A stretch of 64,000 bases of DNA. Source: an uncultured Bacilli bacterium. Its GTDB lineage: Bacteria; Bacillota_I; Bacilli_A; RF39; UBA660. The translations under genes and the position numbers were made by a program. Positions within the stretch are counted from its first letter, which is position 1; each line of letters begins with the position of its first letter. Under the pieces are notes generated by a model. It was not told the origin of the DNA. It saw only the letters and a list, made by a program, of their open reading frames with translations, and did no database searches. Positions 22,133 to 46,528 of this stretch are shown piece by piece. Where the stretch lies: contig CAKPOS010000001.1 of NCBI GenBank assembly GCA_934176955.1, positions 28,310 through 92,309 on the forward strand. The letters are read 5' to 3'.

Positions 22133-22209
22133 GTCTCCGTAGCTCAGTTGGATAGAGCAATCGCCTTCTAAGCGATCGGTCAGGTGTTCGAATCACCTCG
22201 GGGACACCA
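22133..22209 (+). tRNA. tRNA-Arg (anticodon TCT), CCA encoded
   Basis: Cloverleaf: acceptor GTCTCCG/CGGGGAC, D-arm GCTC-AGTTGGATA-GAGC, anticodon stem ATCGC/GCGAT with loop CTTCTAA, T-arm AGGTG-TTCGAAT-CACCT, then ACCA. Confidence 0.85.
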
Positions 22210-34667: not shown

Positions 34668-35450
34668 ATGAATACTGTTGATAAAATTAATTTAATTTTA
34701 AAAAAAACAAATATCTCTAAAGTTAATTTGGCAAAATATTTAGGCGTTTCTAGACAAATGGTATATAATTATTTAGATAGTGATGATTTAAATAAGATGC
34801 CTGCTGAAAAGTGTCAATTGTTGTTTAATTTATTAGAAGTAAGAAGCTGTGAAGATATTGTAAATAAAGAACTTACTGATGAATATTTACAATCTGTTTC
34901 TAATAAAGTTTTTAATTATAAAAAAATTCCTTCAAAGAAAGAAGAAGTGATTGAACTTTCTGGATTAAAGAAAGAAGAACAAGAAATTATATCTGATATT
35001 GTTTTTCTTTTAAAAGAAATGTTAAATGAAAATAAAACGAAAGAGAGTTATATTACTTTAAAGTATTTATATCATTTTATTCAGTCATTGGCAAATATGA
35101 AGGAAGCAAAATATATATTAGGATACATTGCCAAAAATAATGGTTATTTAAAATATAATGTGTATGATTTTAATGAAGAAAATCAATTTATTTTTGAAAG
35201 CATTATGTATTCTGCAATGACTTTATATACAAATGGTGGCGCTTCAAGAAGTAAGTTAGCCGAATCACATCGTAGATGGGAAGCAGAATTAGAGAGAAAA
35301 AATGAAGAGAAATTAAGTCGTACACAGGAATTGAATACTGCTAAAGTACAAGCACTAAGAGAACTTGGATATACAGAGATTAATGAAAGAAATGCTAGTG
35401 AAGTGTTTGATAAGATAGCAGAAATTCAATCTAGAAATGATAAGTATTAA
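34668..35450 (+). CDS. XRE-family helix-turn-helix protein with a long C-terminal extension
   Basis: HTH ISKVNLAKYLGVSRQMVYNY near the N-terminus. 260 aa. Sits immediately upstream of the cas locus. Confidence 0.55.
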   Translation: MNTVDKINLILKKTNISKVNLAKYLGVSRQMVYNYLDSDDLNKMPAEKCQLLFNLLEVRSCEDIVNKELTDEYLQSVSNKVFNYKKIPSKKEEVIELSGLKKEEQEIISDIVFLLKEMLNENKTKESYITLKYLYHFIQSLANMKEAKYILGYIAKNNGYLKYNVYDFNEENQFIFESIMYSAMTLYTNGGASRSKLAESHRRWEAELERKNEEKLSRTQELNTAKVQALRELGYTEINERNASEVFDKIAEIQSRNDKY

Positions 35451-36054
35451 ATCGTTAGGATGATATTATTCATGAATCTTATTTTCTTACCATTTAAAAT
35501 TTTATTTGCTATTATCTTTTTTCCTTTTAAGATTGTTTTTAAACTGCTTGGAATTCGATGATAACATTGAGCAAATACTGATTCTTCGAAATTCAGTAGA
35601 CCTAACAAAAAGTATTCGTTATAAATTAACTTAATATTTATTTGAATTTTTTTAAAAATGATTTAGTTTTTTTAAATTTTAAGAAATAAAATATGATAAA
35701 ATCATGTCTAAAATTTAGATGTGATTTTTTAAACTCACCGAATTTCAAAGAACCCAAATACTGAAAACCATATCTAATTTTTTAGGTGTGGTTTTTGATT
35801 CCTTTGTATTAAAAATTTATCATTATTTCTTTATTTTGATTTTAATAAATTTATTATCAGATAAAAATAATTAAGTATTTTAAATAAGAAATAATATAAT
35901 GTTTAGTTTTTTAATACAAAGTTCTCTTTTTTGTACAATCAAAATATTTTACGCGATCAATTTTAAATGAAGAGAAGACTTTTCGATAGAAATTTGGTAC
36001 AATGAATTTAGGTAGTAAAAATATAATAAATTAATTAAGAAAGTAGGAAAAATA

Positions 36055-39000
36055 GTGAAAAAAGAAAATTATATTTTAGGATTAGATATTGGAATATCGT
36101 CTGTAGGTTGGGGATTATTAGCTTTAGATGAGAAAAATCAACCTTATAAGATTATTGATGTAGGAAGTCGAATCTTTTCTCCTGGAGAAGTAGAAAAAAC
36201 AGGAGATAGCAGGGCTAAAGAAAGAAGAGAAAAAAGAGGAATTAGGAGAAATATTAGAAGAAAAGAATTTCGACTTGATCGGGTAAGAAATCTATTATAT
36301 GAAGAAGGCTATTTAAAGGGAAATGTAACTAGTAATATTGTTTCAATAAAAAATGAAGAATTATCATTGTTATTTAATCATATGATTTGTCAATATTATC
36401 TTAATAAGAATACTAATCCTTATCGTTTGAAAGTAGAAGCGTTAGATAGAAAGCTAACAAATGAAGAATTATCAATAATATTAGTACATTATGCAAAGAA
36501 GAGAGGATATAAATCTAATCGTGAAGAAGCATCGGAAAATGATTCTGGGAAGGTATTAAGCGCTATTAAAGAAAATGAGAAAATAATGAATGAACATCAT
36601 TATCGTACTATTTCTGAAATGTACATAAAAGATGAAAAATTTAAAAATAAAATCAAAAATAGTCCTGGAGATTATAAGATTTCTGTAACGAATGAAATGT
36701 ATTTAGAAGAAATCAACAAAGTACTCGACAGTCAAATAAAATTTGGAGTAATTACTGATACTTTTAAAGATAAATACTTAGAAATATATAATTCTAGAAG
36801 AAGTTATGCTAAAGGACCTGGAGGCAATTCTCCTTATGGTGGGGATTTAATTGAAAGAATGACTGGAAAATGTAATTTTGATGGGAATCTGAGGGCACCT
36901 AAAAGAGCTTTTTCTTCAGAATTATATGTTGCATTAACAAAGTTAGTTAATCTAAAGTATAAAATTAATGATGGAGAATATAAAAGATTATCTAAAGAAG
37001 AAATCAGTTATATGATAGAAAAAGCTAAAGAAAAGAAAACAACAACATATAAGGATTTGATAAAAGTAATTGGAGAGGAAAATATAGAATTTAAAGAGTT
37101 ATCTCTATCTAAAAAAGAATATGGGAAATTAATTGAAAATTTAAAGAAAAAATTAAATATTGGAAAAGATAAAAAAGTGATTATTCATGAATTATCTAAT
37201 GAAGAGAAAGAGATTTACAATCAATTATATCATAATCAATTATATGATAAAACGTTAATAGAATTAAAAGGTTATCATGTATTAAAAGATAGTATAATAA
37301 AAGCTTATAGTAAAGATATTTGGGAAAAGGTTAAAGATAATGTAGAATTATTAGATGAACTTGCATTATATTGTACAAATTATAAAGTTGATGAAGACAT
37401 ACTAAATAAAATTAAAGAATCAGAAAATATAGATAATATATTTGAAGATATTCACTTTGTAGAATTGTTACCTAACTTTAAAGATCATTTAATGTTATCT
37501 ACAGAATTAATAAGAAAATTAATTCCTATTATGCTTGAAGGTAGTACATATGATAAGGCTATGGAAGAAATTGGATACAATCATTCTGATATAAACGGTG
37601 ATAAGGAAAAGAAAGATTTGTTAGTCCCTGTATGCGTTGATAGTAATATTACTAACCAAAGAGTAATTCGTTCTCTTACTCAAACTAGAAAAGTAATTAA
37701 TTCAATTATTAAAAAGTATGGAACTCCTAAAATTATTAATATAGAAACAGCTAGAGAACTTGCTAAAACTAGACAAGAAAGAAATGAAATAGCAAAAAAC
37801 AATGTAGAAAAGCAAGCTGAAAATGATAAAATTAAAAACCAATTAGTAGAATTAGGTTTATTTTCAAATCTTGATAAGATATCGAGTAATGACTTATTAA
37901 AGTATAAATTATGGAAAGAGCAAAATGAATTTTGTGGTTATAGCATGAAAAAAATATCGATTGAAGATTTATTTCAAAATAATATAGTTCAAATTGACCA
38001 CATATTACCTTATTCAAGAACTTATAATGATAGTTATTTTAACAAAACATTAGTATATACCAAAGAAAATCAAGAAAAAGGAAATAAGACACCATTTGAA
38101 TGGTTTGGTAAAACAGAAAAATGGGATGCATATGAAACATATATTAATCATTTGATGATATCTCAAAAGAAAAAAGATAATTATTTATTAAAGAAATTAG
38201 ATTTTGAGATGGAAAGAGAAATGAGAAATCAGAATCTTAATGATACTAAATATATTAGTAGAGAGTTATCTTCTTTAATTAAAGCATATTTAAATGTTGA
38301 AAAAGTAAATATGTATCCAGGTGCTATTACTTCTAAATTAAGAGCAAGATGGGGATTTAATCGACTTACTCATAGTTATTTATCAAAAACTTATAGATTA
38401 CCGGATGAGATGAAAAAAGATATTAATAAAGATAGAGATAATCATCTACATCATGCAATGGATGCTTTAGTAATCGCTTCTATAACACCATCATTACAAC
38501 AAAAGATAACGTTATATGAGAAGTTTAGTAGATATATTGATGGATTAACTGAATTACAAATTAAAAATATTCCATATATAAAGATAGATGATTCTGAAGG
38601 TCAATATTATAATGATAATACTGGTGAAATAGAAACTATTGATATAAAGGACTACATTAAAGAACAATTAGCAAATAATAATATATATTATAATAAGCAT
38701 AATATTAGTAAGTTAGAATTTCCACTTCCATATGAGGGATTTGATGAAGAAGCAAAGTTAAGAGTATACGAACAAGATTTAGACACTTTAAAATGGAATC
38801 TTCAATCATATAACACATACACAAAAAAAGATATAGAATCATTACATACATTAATACCATCTATTGCAAAATCTAAAATATCAGGTAAAATGCATGAAGA
38901 AACTTACTATGGAATAAAAGAATTTGGTAAAAATGAAGATAAAAAAGTATATAAGACTTTAAGGACACCTATTGAAAAGGTTAAAAGAAAAGACTTAGAA

Positions 39001-39690
39001 AATATTCCAGATAAATCGGGAGGTTCTAAAGAAATTTATGAAACTTTAGTAGAATGGTTTGGTGATTATGAAGTAGGAGAAGAAGTACTTAAAGCTAATG
39101 GAAATAAATATCCAGTATCTAAAAATGATAAAGAGCATAAAGAAATTAGAAAATTAAAATTATATAGTGAATATAAAAATACTGGCCACATGATTAATCA
39201 TAGTAATGTAGAAAAAGGTGGAATATATAGAGTTGATATATTTAAATCTAAAGATCAAGATGATGATAAATTATACTTTGCTGCTTATGATATATTGGAA
39301 ATAAAAAAAATTAATACATTAAGAGAAAAAAAGATGACAGATGATACCTTTACTATAAAATTAGATTATGGTCAAGGAAAAAATAATAGAATAATTTCGT
39401 ATACTGATATTGTAAATCATTATGATTTGTATCTTATTTTAAATAAAAATGATTTAATAAAAGTGATTACAAAGGATGGAAAAGAAAGCGTTGCTTATGT
39501 TGTTGGATGTTCTAGTGGAATGTTTGAAGTAAAAAGTAAATTAGGTGATGGATATGATATTATCGTTAATAGTTTTAATGAAAATAATATATTTAATAAG
39601 CAAAGAAAGCAATATGCAATAACTGTTTCTACAATTAAAAAAGTTAAAAAATTATCCATTAGTGTACTAGGAGAGATAAGTGGGTTATAG
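36055..39690 (+). CDS. cas9: type II CRISPR-associated endonuclease Cas9 (1211 aa)
   Basis: RuvC-I ILGLDIGISSVGWGLL, HNH block IDHILPYSRTYNDSYFNKTLVYTKENQEKGNKTPFEW, RuvC-III HHAMDALVIA. AGGAAAAATA RBS then GTG start. Confidence 0.92.
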   Translation: MKKENYILGLDIGISSVGWGLLALDEKNQPYKIIDVGSRIFSPGEVEKTGDSRAKERREKRGIRRNIRRKEFRLDRVRNLLYEEGYLKGNVTSNIVSIKNEELSLLFNHMICQYYLNKNTNPYRLKVEALDRKLTNEELSIILVHYAKKRGYKSNREEASENDSGKVLSAIKENEKIMNEHHYRTISEMYIKDEKFKNKIKNSPGDYKISVTNEMYLEEINKVLDSQIKFGVITDTFKDKYLEIYNSRRSYAKGPGGNSPYGGDLIERMTGKCNFDGNLRAPKRAFSSELYVALTKLVNLKYKINDGEYKRLSKEEISYMIEKAKEKKTTTYKDLIKVIGEENIEFKELSLSKKEYGKLIENLKKKLNIGKDKKVIIHELSNEEKEIYNQLYHNQLYDKTLIELKGYHVLKDSIIKAYSKDIWEKVKDNVELLDELALYCTNYKVDEDILNKIKESENIDNIFEDIHFVELLPNFKDHLMLSTELIRKLIPIMLEGSTYDKAMEEIGYNHSDINGDKEKKDLLVPVCVDSNITNQRVIRSLTQTRKVINSIIKKYGTPKIINIETARELAKTRQERNEIAKNNVEKQAENDKIKNQLVELGLFSNLDKISSNDLLKYKLWKEQNEFCGYSMKKISIEDLFQNNIVQIDHILPYSRTYNDSYFNKTLVYTKENQEKGNKTPFEWFGKTEKWDAYETYINHLMISQKKKDNYLLKKLDFEMEREMRNQNLNDTKYISRELSSLIKAYLNVEKVNMYPGAITSKLRARWGFNRLTHSYLSKTYRLPDEMKKDINKDRDNHLHHAMDALVIASITPSLQQKITLYEKFSRYIDGLTELQIKNIPYIKIDDSEGQYYNDNTGEIETIDIKDYIKEQLANNNIYYNKHNISKLEFPLPYEGFDEEAKLRVYEQDLDTLKWNLQSYNTYTKKDIESLHTLIPSIAKSKISGKMHEETYYGIKEFGKNEDKKVYKTLRTPIEKVKRKDLENIPDKSGGSKEIYETLVEWFGDYEVGEEVLKANGNKYPVSKNDKEHKEIRKLKLYSEYKNTGHMINHSNVEKGGIYRVDIFKSKDQDDDKLYFAAYDILEIKKINTLREKKMTDDTFTIKLDYGQGKNNRIISYTDIVNHYDLYLILNKNDLIKVITKDGKESVAYVVGCSSGMFEVKSKLGDGYDIIVNSFNENNIFNKQRKQYAITVSTIKKVKKLSISVLGEISGL

Positions 39691-40570
39691 GCAGGTTATT
39701 ATCAAAAAAAGTGAAAAATTACACTTTAAAGACAATCAATTAGTTATTGATAAAGAAGAAAATAGTACTAAAGTGCCTTTGGAAGATATAAGTTATATTT
39801 TAATTGAAGATTCAACAACTATTCTTACGACTAGATTACTTGCTGAATTAGGAAAAAATGCCATATCATTAATTGTATGTGATGAAAAATTTGAACCTAC
39901 GTCGATAATGTATCCCTATAATTATCATTTTAAACAATTAGATGTTTTTACCAATCAATTAGAAATTGATGATAGCATTAAAAATGAATTTTGGAATCAA
40001 ATAGTTAAGAGAAAAATTGAAAATAGTATTAGAGTATTGGAAATGACTTCCAAAGAAGAGTTTCCAATCTCTAAACTAAATGAATATATTAATGAAGTAA
40101 TAGATGGTGATTCAAAAAATAGGGAAGGATTAGCTGCAAAAATGTATTTTCGTAGTTTATTTGGAAGTGATTTTATAAGATTTTATGATGATAATATAAA
40201 TGCTGCTTTAAATTATGGATATACTATAATTGCAAGTGCTATTATCAGAAATTTAGCTGTATATGGACTAAATACTTATTTAGGAATTCATCATAGTTCT
40301 AAGATAAATAATTTTAATTTAGCATATGATTTTTTAGAACCATATCGATCTGTAGTTGATAAATTTATATATGATAATAAAGATGATATTGTATTACCAT
40401 TGTCTTTTGAATTTAGAAAGAAATTAATAAATTTACTAAATAAAGAAGTATTACACCAAAATAAAAAATATACTATTGAATATAGTATAGGATTATTAAT
40501 AAAAAGCTATATAAAATCTTTTTCTACTGGTGAAATAAAATTAGATTTACCTAGTATTATATATGAATAA
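39680..40570 (+). CDS. cas1: CRISPR-associated endonuclease Cas1 (type II)
   Basis: GYRQVIIKKSEKLHFKDNQLVI parallels type II Cas1 [22 protein letters not shown]. GTG start overlaps the cas9 stop by 11 nt. Confidence 0.85.
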   Translation: MGYRQVIIKKSEKLHFKDNQLVIDKEENSTKVPLEDISYILIEDSTTILTTRLLAELGKNAISLIVCDEKFEPTSIMYPYNYHFKQLDVFTNQLEIDDSIKNEFWNQIVKRKIENSIRVLEMTSKEEFPISKLNEYINEVIDGDSKNREGLAAKMYFRSLFGSDFIRFYDDNINAALNYGYTIIASAIIRNLAVYGLNTYLGIHHSSKINNFNLAYDFLEPYRSVVDKFIYDNKDDIVLPLSFEFRKKLINLLNKEVLHQNKKYTIEYSIGLLIKSYIKSFSTGEIKLDLPSIIYE

Positions 40571-40886
40571 TAGATTTATGAGAGTAATTGTAATGTTTGA
40601 TTTACCAGTAATTACAGAAAAAGAGAAAAAAATAGCTACTAAATTTAGAAAATATTTATTAGATGATGGTTTTGTCATGATGCAATATTCTGTTTATTCT
40701 AGAATCTGTAAAAATAATGACGATTTAAATAAGCATATAAAAAGATTAAAAATAAACGCTCCTAAAACTGGGAATATTCGACTACTTCAAATAACAGAAA
40801 ATCAATATAACAATATGATTATGTTTTCAGGTACAAAGTCGGTGGAAGAAGAAATTTCTATAGAAAATTTATTGATATTTGAATAA
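40563..40886 (+). CDS. cas2: CRISPR-associated endoribonuclease Cas2
   Basis: 107 aa, MRVIVMFDLPV...QYSVYSRI pattern. Overlaps the cas1 end by 8 nt. Confidence 0.8.
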   Translation: MNNRFMRVIVMFDLPVITEKEKKIATKFRKYLLDDGFVMMQYSVYSRICKNNDDLNKHIKRLKINAPKTGNIRLLQITENQYNNMIMFSGTKSVEEEISIENLLIFE

Positions 40887-40912
40887 AAAAAACAGGTATA
40901 AACCTGTTTTTT
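40887..40912. terminator. bidirectional intrinsic terminator shared by cas2 and the minus-strand tracrRNA
   Basis: AAAAAACAGGT-ATA-AACCTGTTTTTTT: perfect hairpin with an A-run on one side and a T-run on the other. Confidence 0.65.
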
Positions 40913-41001
40913 TGATCTTTAAGGTTAGATCAAACCTAAGGCATTATGCCTTATTACAGAAACCTGTAAACTTTTAGTAATGTATGTCCAATCTTTCAGG
41001 A
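40887..41001 (-). ncRNA. tracrRNA (about 115 nt) encoded antisense to the cas operon
   Basis: Minus-strand anti-repeat ACAUACAUUACUAAAAGUUUACAGGUUUCUGUAA is complementary, with a few mismatches and wobbles, to the array repeat. It is followed by UAAGGCAUAAUGCCUUA (nexus-like hairpin), a second hairpin, and the terminator. A TTGACT-17-TACAAT promoter sits just upstream. Confidence 0.65.
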
Positions 41002-41008
41002 CAATTTA

Positions 41009-41037
41009 ATTGTATCGTATTTTATTCTTTTAGTCAA
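41009..41037 (-). promoter_or_regulatory. tracrRNA promoter embedded in the 3' end of the csn2-like gene
   Basis: Minus strand TTGACT(41032-41037)-17 nt-TACAAT(41009-41014). The -35 overlaps the last codons and stop (ATT GAC TAA) of the csn2-like ORF. Confidence 0.55.
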
Positions 41038-42079
41038 TGAATTTATTTAATATTTCTAAAAAAAGATTTTGAGTTTCTTTGTTGTCACAAATAATATATT
41101 CACAAGTAATATTTTTAGGTTTATGTAATACAATTTTAATACTATCAGAATTTAATATTTTACTAATTTGATTAGAATATTTATTAATAATATTTTCTTT
41201 AATTTTTATTATTTCTTCAGTAGTGATTAATGATTCATTATTTATATAAAAATCATCAAATAATATAGTACTATTGCTTTTATTATATTCTGTTTTTAAT
41301 ATGTAATTTTTAATTGCTTCATCGATGATATTAAAGTTAATTATTTTGTCTGTTATTTTATATATATTATAATTATTGATATTAATATACTCAAATATAT
41401 TATTACAACTGCTTAATATGAAATGACAATTTTCGTTAGATAGATTATCAATAGTATTTAGTAAATTAATAATTTCATTAGTATTCAAATATACATCGAA
41501 ATTATTAATAATAATTATTGTTGGTTGGTTATCAATTTTTTTAATATCTAAAAAATATAATTGATATAATAGTTTTCTTTTCATTGATTTAGAAATAATA
41601 CTATCATTAAGCAAAACATCATCAATATAAATATTAGTAAATTTATCTATAATAGAATTAATATCAGGTATCTCTATTTGAAATGATATATTACTATCAC
41701 TTTTTTTATTTATTTTTCTATCTAGTAAATTATTTACTTTTTCATCTATTACATCAAATATTTCGTTGGTATATTTAACAATTTTTTCTTCATTAATTTT
41801 ATTAATAACATCATTGTAAATTATTTGTTTTAAAGTATTATTTTTAGTAAATTTAAATTCATTAGTAAAATCATTTTCTTCATTAATACTTATAATATTA
41901 AAATTTTTACTATTATAAGTATTTCCATTTATTAATATATTTTTATTTTTCCCAAGCAAACAATTATTTAATGTATTAATTACTTTATTTTTGTAATTGC
42001 TATTTTTCCCGAAGAAAATTAAGTTTTTATCTAATTTAATTATATTTGGTTGATTATCAATGCTTATAACAATTTCCAT
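41030..42079 (-). CDS. Csn2-like protein (long Csn2 subfamily?), in inverted orientation relative to cas9-cas1-cas2
   Basis: 349 aa, within the ~350-aa range of long Csn2. N-terminal IFFGKNSNYKNKVINTLNNCLLGKNK and C-proximal IIIINNFDVYL...CHFILSSCNNIFEYI follow the Csn2 pattern (from memory: IVGQNNELKYY..GGKK and LIVLKNIDGF...LTFILFPSDQGYL). Sits between cas2 and the array. A 1-kb ORF is highly non-random in ~25% GC DNA. Confidence 0.5.
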   Translation of the reverse strand: MEIVISIDNQPNIIKLDKNLIFFGKNSNYKNKVINTLNNCLLGKNKNILINGNTYNSKNFNIISINEENDFTNEFKFTKNNTLKQIIYNDVINKINEEKIVKYTNEIFDVIDEKVNNLLDRKINKKSDSNISFQIEIPDINSIIDKFTNIYIDDVLLNDSIISKSMKRKLLYQLYFLDIKKIDNQPTIIIINNFDVYLNTNEIINLLNTIDNLSNENCHFILSSCNNIFEYININNYNIYKITDKIINFNIIDEAIKNYILKTEYNKSNSTILFDDFYINNESLITTEEIIKIKENIINKYSNQISKILNSDSIKIVLHKPKNITCEYIICDNKETQNLFLEILNKFID

Positions 42080-42200
42080 TTTTATTATTACCTCAACACA
42101 ATTGTATCAAATATATTTAAAATAATCTATATGTTGGTGTTAATATTTTTTTAAATTCAATATTGTATATTTTTTCTATAAATGATATAATTTATTTGAG
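42080..42200 (+). promoter_or_regulatory. CRISPR leader with extended -10 promoter
   Basis: AT-rich. TGATATAAT at 42183-42191 about 10 nt before the first repeat. Also holds the divergent promoter/RBS of the csn2-like gene. Confidence 0.5.
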
Positions 42201-42968
42201 GTTACAGGACCCTGTTAATTTTTAGTAATGTATAACAAGTTATTATAGTAAATGTTATTATACTACGTTACAGGACCCTGTTAATTTTTAGTAATGTATA
42301 ACAGGAACATGTTGAGTTATATCAACAAGTAAGTTACAGGACCCTGTTAATTTTTAGTAATGTATAACTAAACTAAATGAATTCAAGGGTTTACAAAGGT
42401 TACAGGACCCTGTTAATTTTTAGTAATGTATAACAGCTTGTTTAACTATCTCTTTTGATAATGGTTACAGGACCCTGTTAATTTTTAGTAATGTATAACT
42501 TAAAATGAACGAAAAAAGAGAAAGAATAGGTTACAGGACCCTGTTAATTTTTAGTAATGTATAACTGTTCACAACGTTTTACAATATACACAGCAGTTAC
42601 AGGACCCTGTTAATTTTTAGTAATGTATAACTAGAAGAAATTTAAAAGATAGGTAATTTACGTTACAGGACCCTGTTAATTTTTAGTAATGTATAACATG
42701 GGGTAAAAGTGGAGAATTTGTAAGCAAGTTACAGGACCCTGTTAATTTTTAGTAATGTATAACCACTTCAATTAAAATTGAAAGAGAGGTAAAGTTACAG
42801 GACCCTGTTAATTTTTAGTAATGTATAACTTTTGATAATATAAGTGATTATTTGTATAAGTTACAGGACCCTGTTAATTTTTAGTAATGTATAACTATCA
42901 CAAATAAGGCTAGTAATGTAAGTAAGTTACAGGACCCTGTTAATTTTTAGTAATTAGTAATGTATAAC
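42201..42968 (+). CRISPR. CRISPR array, 12 repeats / 11 spacers, repeat GTTACAGGACCCTGTTAATTTTTAGTAATGTATAAC (36 nt)
   Basis: Eleven identical repeats start at 42201, 42267, 42333, 42399, 42464, 42530, 42596, 42662, 42728, 42794, 42860. Spacers are 30 nt except spacer 4 (29 nt). The terminal repeat 42926-42968 carries a 7-nt TAGTAAT duplication. Confidence 0.95.
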
Positions 42969-43447
42969 ATAATGACAAGATTAATACAAAAAAACTTAAA
43001 TTTTAACGAAATATCAAGATGAACTAAAGAAAATGCAAATAACACACCCACCTATATTACCAAAACAAAAGTTAAAACAGAAATAAGTGTAAACTTAATT
43101 TTTAATAGAGAAGGGGAGAGTGAAAAAAATTCAAGTCCCCTATTTTATATAATAAAAAGTAATTATTTATTGTTATCAAAGTTATCAAAATATAAAATAT
43201 ATTTACCTATATAAAATATTCTATAATAAAATAACGTTATTTATTAAATAAAATTAAAATTATTTAATTCATTTAATTTATAATTTTTTGAATTTATATT
43301 TAATTTTATTTTGAATTATTGTTATTTAAATTCTTTTTAAAAGCTTTAAATTTATCAAAAAAGTTTTATATATAATTAGTTAGATTTTAAATAAAAAAAT
43401 AAACTAAAATTAAAGTTTAGATTTTAAAATTTAATTTGAAATTAAAA

Positions 43448-43650
43448 AGTTGGATAATTATCCATCTCAAGTTAAATTTTAGAGAAATAAAAATGGAATC
43501 GAAAATCAAAAAGATGAATGATTGTACAACTCAAGTTAAATTTAAGTCAAGTAAAATTTAACTTGAGAATTAAAAAATTGGATAACTATCCATCTCAATT
43601 TAAATTTTTTTTAATTTAGATCTCTAAATTTAATTTGAGTTGATGAATGA
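43448..43650. repeat. cluster of nested direct/inverted repeats with DnaA-box-like palindromes in an ORF-free region
   Basis: TTGGATAATTATCCATCTCAAGTTAAATTT (43450-43479) and TTGGATAACTATCCATCTCAATTTAAATTT (43578-43607). Between them is the palindrome CTCAAGTTAAATTT...AAATTTAACTTGAG. CAACTCAAGTTAAATTT (43527) and its inverted partner (43627-43645) are flanked by direct GATGAATGAT copies. Confidence 0.5.
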
Positions 43651-43978
43651 TGATGATTTATTCAATTCAAACTTTATTAATTTATGTAATTATGTAATAA
43701 TGTATTAATTAATTGAAAATAATATATAGTAGTTTATAATTTATAAAACTTATATATTGATTAATTCATTCATTATAAACTTTGAAAAAAATGTTTAGTA
43801 TAGCTATAAATTTATCTTAAAAATTCTATTTTTGTTAGTTCCTATAATTTATATTATGTAAACTTCTGTATCTAAAATAGAAAGAAAACCCTTATATTAT
43901 AAGGGCCTATTCCATTATTTTAGTTTCATTTTTAATTCTTAAATCTTAATTCAATATCAGTATTTTTTGTTCATCATT

Positions 43979-46528
43979 TTATTTTAATTTTTCTTTTAAC
44001 TCATATAATAAATTTAAAGCTTTTAAAGGGGTTAATTCTAGAACGTTTGTTTGTTTTAAGATTTCTTCAACTTCGCTTTTTTCAGTTATTTTTTGAGAAA
44101 TAACATCTAGTGGTAAACTTGTTTGAATAGCAATTTCTTTTTTACTTGGATCGTTATTTTCATAAGCTGCTAATATTTCAGATGCTCTACTTAACACTTC
44201 GTTTGGTAATCCTGCTAATTTAGCAACATTAATTCCATAACTTTTGTCGACACTACCATCTTTTACTTTGTGTAAAAAGATGATATTTTCTCCATCTTCT
44301 GACGCAGATACATGTTTATTTTTTAAGTGCTTTAACTCTTTTTCTAATTTAGTTAATTCATGATAATGCGTTGAAAATAACGTTTTACAACCAATTGTAT
44401 TGTTTACATATTCTAATATTGCTTGTGCTAGACTCATTCCATCATAAGTAGCAGTTCCCCTACCCAATTCATCGAATAAAATCAGACTACTTTTGGTAGC
44501 ATTTTTTAAAGCGTGTGTAGCCTCAATCATCTCAACCATGAAAGTAGATTCTCCACTGACTAAGTCATCACTGGCACCTATTCTTGTGAATATTTGGTCG
44601 AATATTGGCATTTTTGCTTCTTTTGCAGGGACAAAACATCCTATTTGGGACATAATAGCAATTATTCCTAATTGTCTCATATAAGTACTTTTTCCAGCCA
44701 TATTAGGGCCTGTAATTAATAGTGTATATACACCGTTATCCATTACAATATCATTAGGAACATATTCTCCTTTAATTACTCTTTCTACTACAGGATGTCT
44801 TGATTCTATTAATTTTAAGCTATGATCTAATGTTAAAGTTGGTCTTACATAATTATATCTTTCACTCACTGAGGCAAAGCTTTGTAAAACATCTATTTCG
44901 CTAATTGTTTTAGCAATTTTTTGTAATTTAGGAATATATTTTTTGATTTTATCTCTAATTTCGATAAATAGTTCATATTCTAAATTAATGATTTTTTCTT
45001 CTGCACTTAGAATTAAATCTTCTTTTTCTTTTAAAAGAGGAGTAATAAATCTTTCACAATTTGTTAAAGTTTGCTTTCTAATATAACCCATATCCTCTCG
45101 AATTAGTCCTAAGTTACTTTTAGATATTTCAATGTAATAACCAAATACTTTATTAAATCCTATTTTTAAATTTTTTATTCCTGTTCTTTCTTTTTCTTCT
45201 AATTCGAATTTGCTGATGAAGTCCTTTCCCCCACTTCTTAATTCTTTTAGTTCATCTAATTCACTGGAGTAACCTTTTTTGATTAAATATCCTTCTTTTA
45301 AGGTAATAGGGGGTTCTTCATAAATGGCTGCTTCTAGGAGGTCATATAAGTCTGATAAGGGGTTGATGTCACTATAAAACTTTATTTCTTTTAACATTTC
45401 TGCAATGATAGGTAATACTTTTAGGGAATTTTTTAATTGAATTAAATCTCTTCCATTGGCATTTCCTAAAGCTATTCTTCCACTTAATCTTTCTAAGTCA
45501 TAAATTTCATATAAATTTTTTCTTAAATCTTCTGCTAAGATAAATTCTTCGATTAATTTGCTGACAACTTCATGCCTTTTTTCAATGGGTTTCTTTTCTT
45601 TTAATGGAGCTTCAATCCATTGTTTTAATTTTCGACTTCCCATGGCTGTTTTAGTATTATCCAAAAGCCATAGTAAAGAGTAATTTCTATCTTTTAAACG
45701 AAGACTTTCTGTTAATTCTAGATTTCTTTTGGTATGAATATCCATCTTTAAGAAATTGTCAGTTTCATTAATGATTACTTTTTGTAAGTGACCTAAGCTT
45801 CTTTTTTGATTGATAACTAAATAATATAGTAAATGTTTAATCGAATTGATATAGCGACTATCGGTAATCCCCTTATAGCAGAATTTATATTCTTCTGTTT
45901 CAAGAATGTTATTTACCAATGTTACAGTTAAGTGATATTGTTCTTTTAGTAAATGAATAATATTAGAATTTACTAATTTGTTAATAATTACTTCTCTTAA
46001 TCCAAAAGATAAGATATCGTTAATTAATTTATCATCATCATGAGGAATGATTTCAGCATATAATTCTCCAGTTGTAATATCTGTATAGACAATAGAATAG
46101 CAATATTCATAATCATAGATGCTCCCAATATAATTATTTGTTTTTTCATCTAAGCTATTAGAACTAATAATGGTTCCTGAAGAAATCACTTCTGTAACAT
46201 CTCTTTTAACAATTCCTTTGGCAGATTTTGGATCTTCTAATTGTTCACAAATAGCCACTTTAAATCCTTGTTTAATTAGTTTATCAACATAAATATCTAC
46301 TGCGTGATGAGGAACGCCACACATGGGTACTCTTTCTTCTAAGCCAGCATTTCTTCCTGTTAGTGTTAATTCTAGGGCATGAGAGACGACTTCAGCATCT
46401 TCAAAGAACATTTCATAGAAATCTCCTAAGCGATATAATAAGATTACATCGGGATATTTGTCCTTTAATTCAACATAATGCCTCATCATAGGGGCTAATT
46501 TTGTTCTATCAATTTCACTTATTTTCAT
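43979..46528 (-). CDS. mutS: DNA mismatch repair protein MutS
   Basis: N-terminal mismatch-binding MMRHYVELKDKYPDVILLYRLGDFYEMF. Walker A GPNMAGKSTYMRQ. 849 aa. A CCCTTATATTATAAGGG terminator lies downstream on the minus strand. Confidence 0.9.
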   Translation of the reverse strand: MKISEIDRTKLAPMMRHYVELKDKYPDVILLYRLGDFYEMFFEDAEVVSHALELTLTGRNAGLEERVPMCGVPHHAVDIYVDKLIKQGFKVAICEQLEDPKSAKGIVKRDVTEVISSGTIISSNSLDEKTNNYIGSIYDYEYCYSIVYTDITTGELYAEIIPHDDDKLINDILSFGLREVIINKLVNSNIIHLLKEQYHLTVTLVNNILETEEYKFCYKGITDSRYINSIKHLLYYLVINQKRSLGHLQKVIINETDNFLKMDIHTKRNLELTESLRLKDRNYSLLWLLDNTKTAMGSRKLKQWIEAPLKEKKPIEKRHEVVSKLIEEFILAEDLRKNLYEIYDLERLSGRIALGNANGRDLIQLKNSLKVLPIIAEMLKEIKFYSDINPLSDLYDLLEAAIYEEPPITLKEGYLIKKGYSSELDELKELRSGGKDFISKFELEEKERTGIKNLKIGFNKVFGYYIEISKSNLGLIREDMGYIRKQTLTNCERFITPLLKEKEDLILSAEEKIINLEYELFIEIRDKIKKYIPKLQKIAKTISEIDVLQSFASVSERYNYVRPTLTLDHSLKLIESRHPVVERVIKGEYVPNDIVMDNGVYTLLITGPNMAGKSTYMRQLGIIAIMSQIGCFVPAKEAKMPIFDQIFTRIGASDDLVSGESTFMVEMIEATHALKNATKSSLILFDELGRGTATYDGMSLAQAILEYVNNTIGCKTLFSTHYHELTKLEKELKHLKNKHVSASEDGENIIFLHKVKDGSVDKSYGINVAKLAGLPNEVLSRASEILAAYENNDPSKKEIAIQTSLPLDVISQKITEKSEVEEILKQTNVLELTPLKALNLLYELKEKLK

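Follow-up and report, generated by a model that had tools for sequence, protein, structure and literature searches.

A gene-free kilobase beside mutS in an uncultured Bacilli bacterium: a probable replication terminus with dif, an inovirus attachment site and a repeat array

What does a kilobase without genes do in a bacterial chromosome? The question is raised by positions 42969 to 43978 of a 64,000-nt stretch of DNA (the window) from an uncultured Bacilli bacterium, an interval that lies between an array of clustered regularly interspaced short palindromic repeats (CRISPR) and mutS. The original prediction, made from the sequence, held that no open reading frame (ORF) of 60 amino acids (aa) or more occurs there, and the ORF listing of the window agrees that the region is non-coding, the largest ORF being 41 aa. 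With the CRISPR array counted in, ORFs of 100 aa or more are nowhere in the window farther apart than here (42080-43978), and the GC content of the region is 16.6% compared with 26.7% for the window. The gene-free kilobase is very probably the replication terminus, which holds the recombination site dif and also serves as the bacterial attachment site (attB) of an inovirus. Overall, the locus is an ordinary, well-supported terminus with dif and a natural example of a mobile element exploiting Xer recombination (IMEX), accompanied by one unexplained repeat array. Coordinates are positions in the window, and L-numbers denote related metagenomic or genomic loci fetched for comparison.

The replication terminus and its dif site

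The cumulative G-C curve reaches its maximum at 43,000-44,000 (about 43.5 kb), where the windowed GC skew switches sign. Among ORFs of 100 aa or longer, the plus strand carries almost all those up to 40886 and the minus strand almost all those from 43979 on. Since the skew maximum is found together with converging gene strands, the region lies at the terminus, the opposite of the origin. The transcription units of both replichores would finish at two convergent intrinsic terminators within the interval (Table 1), and the proposal that terminators bracket the region is borne out. The plus-strand terminator after the CRISPR array was confirmed as first described, with AGGGGA at 43112, TCCCCT at 43135-43140, an ATTTTAT tail and a folding energy of −14.6 kcal/mol (z −3.3); in the CRISPR-less species L001 both arms and an ATTTTA tail are kept and the loop has diverged. 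The mutS terminator also exists, slightly to the left of the position claimed for it (43896-43925).

An origin-like region or a DnaA-titration site had been suggested as well, on the strength of TTATCCA half-sites, which occur 12 times in the window. That reading is reversed by the cumulative GC skew, which is maximal here, and the neighbours are mutS and CRISPR-Cas genes. No DnaA box (TTATCCACA) with one mismatch or fewer lies in 42000-44500, and boxes with up to two mismatches occur there at the background rate (5 versus 4.7 per kb).

The dif site is 28 bp long, with a 6-bp centre between two arms of 11 bp that form an imperfect dyad. It is identical at 25 of 28 positions to the dif site of Bacillus subtilis (ACTTCCTAGAATATATATTATGTAAACT) given by Kono et al. 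2011 (PMC3025954), and the XerD arm TTATGTAAACT is the same in both. None of 100 shuffles contained any dif match at three or fewer mismatches, and dif is single within the window, where the next best sites are eight mismatches away. One of the only two non-self sites within eight mismatches, 43180-43207 (20/28), lies in inverted orientation within the AT-rich spacer, is unconserved and partly deleted in L177, and was treated as probably due to chance. The original prediction of a recombination element was therefore right in spirit, the recombination site being dif, which had not been flagged, and not the palindromes.

Table 1. Features of the gene-free interval and its surroundings (window coordinates).
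Feature	Coordinates	Strand	Basis and remarks
HTH260 gene	34668-35450	+	260-aa protein
Cas9 island	35451-43085		absent from some relatives (see text)
cas9	36055-39690		type II CRISPR-Cas
tracrRNA	40888-40988	−	between cas2 and CRISPR array; anti-repeat 40953-40988
349-aa ORF	41030-42079	−	accompanies cas9-cas1-cas2
CRISPR array	42201-42968		12 repeats, last one degenerate
CRISPR trailer	42969-43104	+	downstream of degenerate last repeat 42926-42968
Intrinsic terminator, predicted end of left-replichore (+) transcription	43112-43148	+	AGGGGA...TCCCCT then ATTTTAT
AT-rich spacer	43149-43418		8.5% GC, indel-rich, poorly conserved; composition and alignment
Tandem array of 64-bp dyad-symmetric units	43419-43651	+	repeat family, three copies at 64-bp spacing, 75% identity
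Perfect 14-bp-stem hairpin	43529-43568		X of unit B + X' of unit C; −13.8 kcal/mol, z −4.9
Array-dif spacer	43652-43836		94% identical to L001, unconserved in the species with 90% MutS identity
dif	43837-43864	+	XerC arm AGTTCCTATAA 43837-43847; centre TTTATA 43848-43853; XerD arm TTATGTAAACT 43854-43864
mutS intrinsic terminator	43886-43908	−	10-pair stem then T-rich tail; −10.7 kcal/mol
mutS	43979-46528	−	precomputed domains

If this sequence is dif, then it might be expected to persist among relatives. It is found downstream of mutS in the window species and in five further species-level groups, with 26-28 of the 28 positions conserved: 27/28 in L001 and L189 (MutS 96% identical), 27-28/28 in L181-188 (90%), 27/28 in L194 (83%), 26/28 in L195 (82%) and 27/28 in L190-193 (81%). 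The differences are confined almost entirely to the central hexamer (TATAAA, TATAGA, TATACA or TATATA). The closest genome record by MutS is 'Bacilli bacterium SUG1421' (96% identical), and some relatives are labelled Erysipelotrichaceae. MutS relatives at 80% identity or less (L002-L160) have no dif or array beside mutS and, judging by the loci compared, the linkage of mutS and dif is confined to this genus-level clade. The comparisons draw their power from six species-level groups only.

By analogy with established Xer biology, the host tyrosine recombinases XerC and XerD would bind the arms of dif after replication and would swap strands across the 6-bp centre, turning chromosome dimers into monomers. 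Two observations weigh against this interpretation: the single-copy state of dif applies to the 64-kb window only, and none of the 21 proteins identified in the window (20 by Pfam, MutS by precomputed domains) is encoded by xerC, xerD or ftsK. With dif, the locus places the terminus and the dimer-resolution site of a gut Bacilli lineage known only from metagenomes.

An inovirus prophage inserted in dif

A MutS identical to that of the window is encoded by 22 metagenomic contigs, and in four of these (L174, L176, L177 and L178) homology to the window breaks off inside dif. The left prophage junction (attL), on the mutS side, is a hybrid site, AGTTTACATAA-TATAAA-CTAAATGAATT, and the right junction (attR) consists of a perfect dif that runs on into window sequence from 43912 to 43082. 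Empty dif alleles are present in the window and in L171-173, L175, L179 and L180. The 8.2-kb insert (12665-20888 in L174) encodes an HTH_3 repressor, many small ORFs, a 450-aa protein, a Zot protein (PF05707) and a G2P-type rolling-circle Rep (PF23343), and no recombinase or integrase domain is on record for it. The prophage of L177 is a variant carrying a DUF2726 gene. The closest matches of the insert are uncultured fecal inoviruses, Rep and Zot matching bajarodino virus 42 (46%) and Dulem virus 59 (Zot, 72%); the latter was set aside as a guide to the phage attachment site (attP), since it encodes its own recombinase.

The junctions in all four contigs lie within the XerD arm and the centre of dif. 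The XerC arm of the phage is degenerate (7/11), its XerD arm and centre are the same as those of dif, and the flank of attP mimics about 45 bp of the XerD (mutS-terminator) side of the host, terminator hairpin included. The attP pattern has no exact match in IMG/VR, nor did a scan of that collection with the prophage Rep protein turn up a relative. Relative to the regenerated dif, the inovirus lies on the side of mutS and the XerD arm, away from the repeat array.

These junctions are indirect evidence for strand exchange inside dif. A phage of this kind would hijack the host XerC and XerD, using as its attachment site the dif that is present in every cell, and integration would leave the hybrid site by mutS and rebuild a perfect dif by the array. 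One hybrid site plus one regenerated dif is the signature of an IMEX, and the insert has the further marks of one: no integrase of its own, a position in dif between dif-like sites, and empty-site alleles. A point on the other side is that the crossover maps only to a 20-bp stretch common to phage and host, which leaves short-homology recombination as a conceivable alternative. The insert is a strain-level natural demonstration of an inovirus exploiting dif in this lineage, with an unusual attP in which the XerC arm, not the XerD arm, is degenerate.

The repeat array on the XerC side of dif

A distance of about 190 bp separates the XerC arm of dif from an array of 3.5 copies of a 62-64-bp unit, delineated by repeat finding, motif mapping and an nhmmer profile. 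Within a unit, X' (AAAATTTAAnTTGAGA) is followed by an A-rich linker of 10 nt, then by P (TGGAyAAyTATCCA) and finally by X (TCTCAAnTTAAATTT). Two of the units, A (from 43419) and C (from 43547), are intact. In the degenerate unit B (from 43483) the place of P is taken by GATGAATGATTGTACAAC, and the partial unit D (from 43611) contains GATGAATGAT again. All the features noted originally are present to within a few bases of their given positions, and most of the repeats find their place in this layout. The two 30-bp direct repeats are present (43449-43479 and 43577-43607), and of the two supposedly perfect palindromes within them, TGGATAATTATCCA (43451-43464) is perfect and TGGATAACTATCCA (43579-43592) is not, having 6+6 arms around a non-symmetric AC. 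The 17-bp inverted repeats flanking a segment of about 85 bp (43527-43543 and 43626-43642) are real, with one mismatch, and represent X of unit B and X' of unit D. The direct copies of GATGAATGAT (43513 and 43642) are also real, and those of TTAGATTTTAAA are at 43380 and 43417; the interpretation of the GATGAATGAT copies as a target duplication fails, the repeats having a 64-bp periodicity and the left copy lying 4 bp off the inverted repeat, within unit B.

With two or fewer mismatches, the 15-mer TCTCAAGTTAAATTT has six copies, all in 43427-43640, compared with a chance expectation of 2.4 per 64 kb, and the cluster folds beyond its shuffles on both strands (z −5.1 and −6.7). Because all six copies fall within 215 bp and both strands fold in this way, the repeats are not due to chance. 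The hairpin formed between units B and C (Table 1) has a 10-nt loop at 43544-43553, AAGTCAAGTA. Further along, the spacer between array and dif holds two tandem copies of TTATGTAAT (43682 and 43690, spanning 43682-43705), 150-170 bp from dif and in the same orientation. This motif shares the first 8 nt of the XerD arm, varies in copy number among alleles and is unconserved in the species with 90% MutS identity (L181-188, the 90% species). Three of the eight occurrences of TTATGTAA in the window lie in 43682-43861.

In four species (that of the window, that of L001, the 90% species and L195) the array sits at the orthologous place, at a distance of 100-300 bp from dif and on its XerC side; in the species of L190 and of L194, both with an intact dif, it is reduced to remnants. 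The number of units varies, with one extra in L182 and L188, one fewer in L183, an extra unit at the left in L173 and L189, and four 62-nt units in L195, whose array is inverted as a whole with respect to dif and mutS. The 10-nt loop also flips: L001, L189 and L172 read TACTTGACTT or TACTTGACCT, the reverse complement of the loop in the window. Units are better conserved (82-86%) than their flanks (about 66%), and in the 90% species a compensatory change has turned TTGAGA/TCTCAA of X'/X into TCGAGA/TCTCGA (T:A to C:G). The AT-rich spacer to the left is 67% identical to L001 and L173, with many gaps.

We lean towards the array being a non-essential protein-binding or cruciform element, although any particular role that might be assigned to it is doubtful at best. 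Since neither strand exceeds the other in dyad symmetry, the array is inferred to act at the level of DNA. It would most likely bind a dimeric protein or extrude as a cruciform, and recombination or template switching between inverted copies would make its units grow or shrink in number and flip. Two related species keep dif with remnants of the array only, so the array is considered dispensable for the function of dif. Several observations tell against a protein-binding element, which is itself a rather unlikely proposition with a putative binding partner. The palindromes are imperfect in most alleles, and little of the array is left in L190 and L194. The interval 43425-43836 is 87-96% identical to L001, whereas fourfold sites of mutS are 58% identical; this high identity could be the result of selection or of gene flow, and gene flow explains at least part of it, because the spacer next to dif (43652-43836) is unconserved in the 90% species. 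Strains with identical MutS also carry mosaic intergenic alleles (43085-43640), in which the left part of L173 and the middle part of L172 are L001-like, and these imply that recombination across lineages has probably occurred recently in the terminus region.

A functionless relic or a self-propagating hairpin minisatellite, maybe the remnant of an older element integrated in dif, is possible but unlikely. Its source could be the origin or packaging hairpins of a satellite phage, reshuffled by slippage and gene conversion, and this too is on the unlikely side. The variable copy number, the flipped loop, the inverted array of L195 and the mosaic alleles are all what such a sequence would be expected to leave, as are its loss in two lineages and its position in a proven integration hot spot. 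Against this, no other copy of the unit was found in the 64-kb window or in 2.25 Mb of fetched loci, prophage included, BLAST of 43400-43870 gave no match in 50,697 phage records or 72,556 plasmids, and the exact pattern of the P-X junction has none in IMG/VR. The resident inovirus inserts on the other side of dif, and the architecture of the unit has been kept across species whose synonymous sites are near saturation.

A tentative reading, rather improbable as it stands, makes the array a functional module of the terminus, with sites for a dimeric helix-turn-helix (HTH) protein that assists or topologically filters Xer recombination in the manner of cer and psi, or a Ter-like barrier to replication forks. 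Its constant position relative to the XerC arm of dif in four species, the better conservation of its units and the compensatory change in X'/X favour such a role. ArgR is an accessory factor of Xer recombination at plasmid cer sites, and P matches the core of the ARG box, which we take to be TGAATwwwwATTCA, at 12 of 14 positions. A neighbouring gene encodes a 260-aa protein (HTH260; Table 1) with an N-terminal HTH and no family assignment, of whose 5843 homologues the top 120 are at least 81% identical. Residues 213-258 of HTH260 are weakly similar to the N-terminal domain of ArgR (NCBIfam E 0.029; PDB 1aoy E 0.61; hhalign probability 56%), and its AlphaFold model is poor, with a predicted local distance difference test (pLDDT) of 68 and a predicted template modelling score (pTM) of 0.37. 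To link the ARG-box likeness of P and the ArgR-like end of HTH260 to an accessory function in Xer recombination is speculative. Every similarity to ArgR is below significance, the species with a decayed array (L190 and L194) retain both dif and the HTH protein, several alleles have degraded palindromes, and the inverted array of L195 argues against a strictly polar or geometric role. To our knowledge, chromosomal dif sites do not need accessory sequences. The more specific proposal of an undescribed cis-acting terminus module that acts with dif, with HTH260 as the candidate dimeric binder, is improbable, and it is a similarly long shot that such a module would impose selectivity on resolution, or pause forks or organise the terminus, in a lineage without a known Tus or RTP. 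The array is the one unexplained item of this locus: if it does bind protein it would offer a route to terminus organisation in Firmicutes without RTP, and it may equally be a dispensable minisatellite.

Small structured RNAs, which had also been proposed, or back-up bidirectional terminators shielding dif from read-through, are a poor explanation of the cluster. Each of its hairpins folds at −13 to −14 kcal/mol (z −4 to −5), a run of T8 follows unit C on the plus strand, and the array lies between convergent transcription units. However, folding is equal on both strands, the pattern of wobbles and mismatches favours neither, and the stems are almost pure A-T. Rfam at gathering thresholds found only a tRNA at 22133 in the whole window, and a permissive scan of 42900-44050 returned noise only (best E 0.4-4.9, far below gathering scores). 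Promoter-like sites are not enriched (32 found, 36.6 expected), and the sole strong one (TTGAAA-16-TATAAT, 43713-43740) is downstream of the array; a small RNA starting from it was considered and rejected, the site being unconserved in L001 and deleted in some loci of the 90% species. Coding of small proteins was likewise rejected: the largest ORFs, of 41 and 33 aa, lie inside the repeats, and alleles carry frameshifting indels. So was a remnant of an old CRISPR array or leader, since the whole 64-nt unit repeats, shows no similarity to the CRISPR repeat and is present in strains and species without CRISPR.

The remaining options of the original prediction, namely a programmed inverton, a miniature inverted-repeat transposable element (MITE) with a duplication of GATGAATGAT, or an origin or DnaA-titration site, can draw on real inverted and direct repeats, on a 10-nt loop found in both orientations among strains and on the TTATCCA half-sites, but are very improbable, being largely refuted by a collinear segment, a unit confined to a single locus, the lack of an empty site, a skew of the terminus type and DnaA boxes at background. 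The segment 43544-43626 was never inverted in about 20 distinct contigs, no invertase or recombinase gene was found nearby in the part of the window ORFs scanned against Pfam, and there is no conserved internal promoter. A MITE would call for further copies of the repeat unit, and none turned up in the window or in the related loci, which total 2.25 Mb. Alleles with an empty site were not seen either, and the supposed duplication does not abut the left inverted repeat.

Neighbouring genes and comparison with known systems

To the right of the region, mutS, tig, greA and a Mur ligase gene are all on the minus strand. The left flank is a type II CRISPR-Cas locus without csn2 and cas4, in which cas9 is accompanied by cas1 and cas2, reaching 40886. 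The anti-repeat of the trans-activating CRISPR RNA (tracrRNA) is followed by a nexus-like hairpin, TAAGGCATAATGCCTTA, and a terminator, AACAGGTTTATACCTGTTTTTTTT. Because this minus-strand anti-repeat pairs with the plus-strand CRISPR repeat (32 of 36 positions), the CRISPR array is transcribed on the plus strand, from left to right. A 349-aa ORF (Table 1), which matches nothing in Pfam or NCBIfam, is present in every CRISPR-positive strain.

Homology between strains ends at about 43082-43085, within the CRISPR trailer. In some strains a lone CRISPR repeat comes right after the boundary at 43082 (L179 7802-10320; L175 13444-15600; L174 21644-22550), and beyond it are ORFs of 99, 117 and 281 aa (or 110 and 142 aa). 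In the same three loci a second copy of the trailer (window 42978-43102), 75-78% identical, precedes the array proper. From their sequences, the lone repeat and the second trailer copy look like an insertion or duplication involving CRISPR repeats.

The sibling strain L177 and two related species lack the Cas9 island. In the same slot, L190-192 have a different system, of type II-A (csn2 and a 1366-aa Cas9), and L194 has DUF2726 and a UvrD-like helicase. The slot extends from the conserved gene for HTH260 to the repeat array with dif. By these alleles, the slot between mutS-dif and HTH260 is a terminus-proximal hot spot for variable cargo, which comprises two Cas9 systems, helicase and DUF2726 genes, and small ORFs.

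The dif site resembles that of B. subtilis, the Firmicutes type recombined by CodV (XerC) and RipX (XerD), in its 28-bp, 11-6-11 architecture, its position at the GC-skew switch, its conserved arms and variable centre among relatives, and its single copy (here within 64 kb). Unlike the B. subtilis site, it lies directly downstream of mutS, its host is an uncultured low-GC gut member of the Bacilli and its recombinases are presumed ones.

As in known IMEX phages, a filamentous phage without an integrase sits exactly in dif, a hybrid site and a regenerated functional dif flank it, and siblings have empty sites. It differs from TLCphi and the gonococcal island, in which the XerD arm is degenerate (PMC5357621), in that here the degenerate arm of attP is the XerC arm. 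The IMEX examples described in a 2017 review are all from Proteobacteria (PMC5357621), whereas the host here belongs to the class Bacilli.

Like the accessory sequences that plasmids carry at cer and psi, which bind ArgR and PepA or ArcA and PepA, the array is non-coding, about 200 bp long and placed on the XerC side of a Xer core; the ARG-box-like palindrome and the ArgR-N-like domain encoded nearby are weak leads in the same direction. Unlike cer and psi, it is a chromosomal, tandem palindromic array that lies 100-300 bp from the core and does not abut it, is lost or inverted in some relatives, and has putative binding only. In its tandem, alternately inverted palindromic units, its variable copy number and its place between convergent genes, it is closer to the BIME-2 type of bacterial interspersed mosaic element (BIME), the arrays of repetitive extragenic palindromic (REP) elements of enterobacteria. 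BIME and REP elements are dispersed in hundreds of copies per genome, whereas the unit described here was found at one locus only. The flip-flop of its loop between the arms of a perfect stem recalls the small hairpin-loop inversions of chloroplast spacers.

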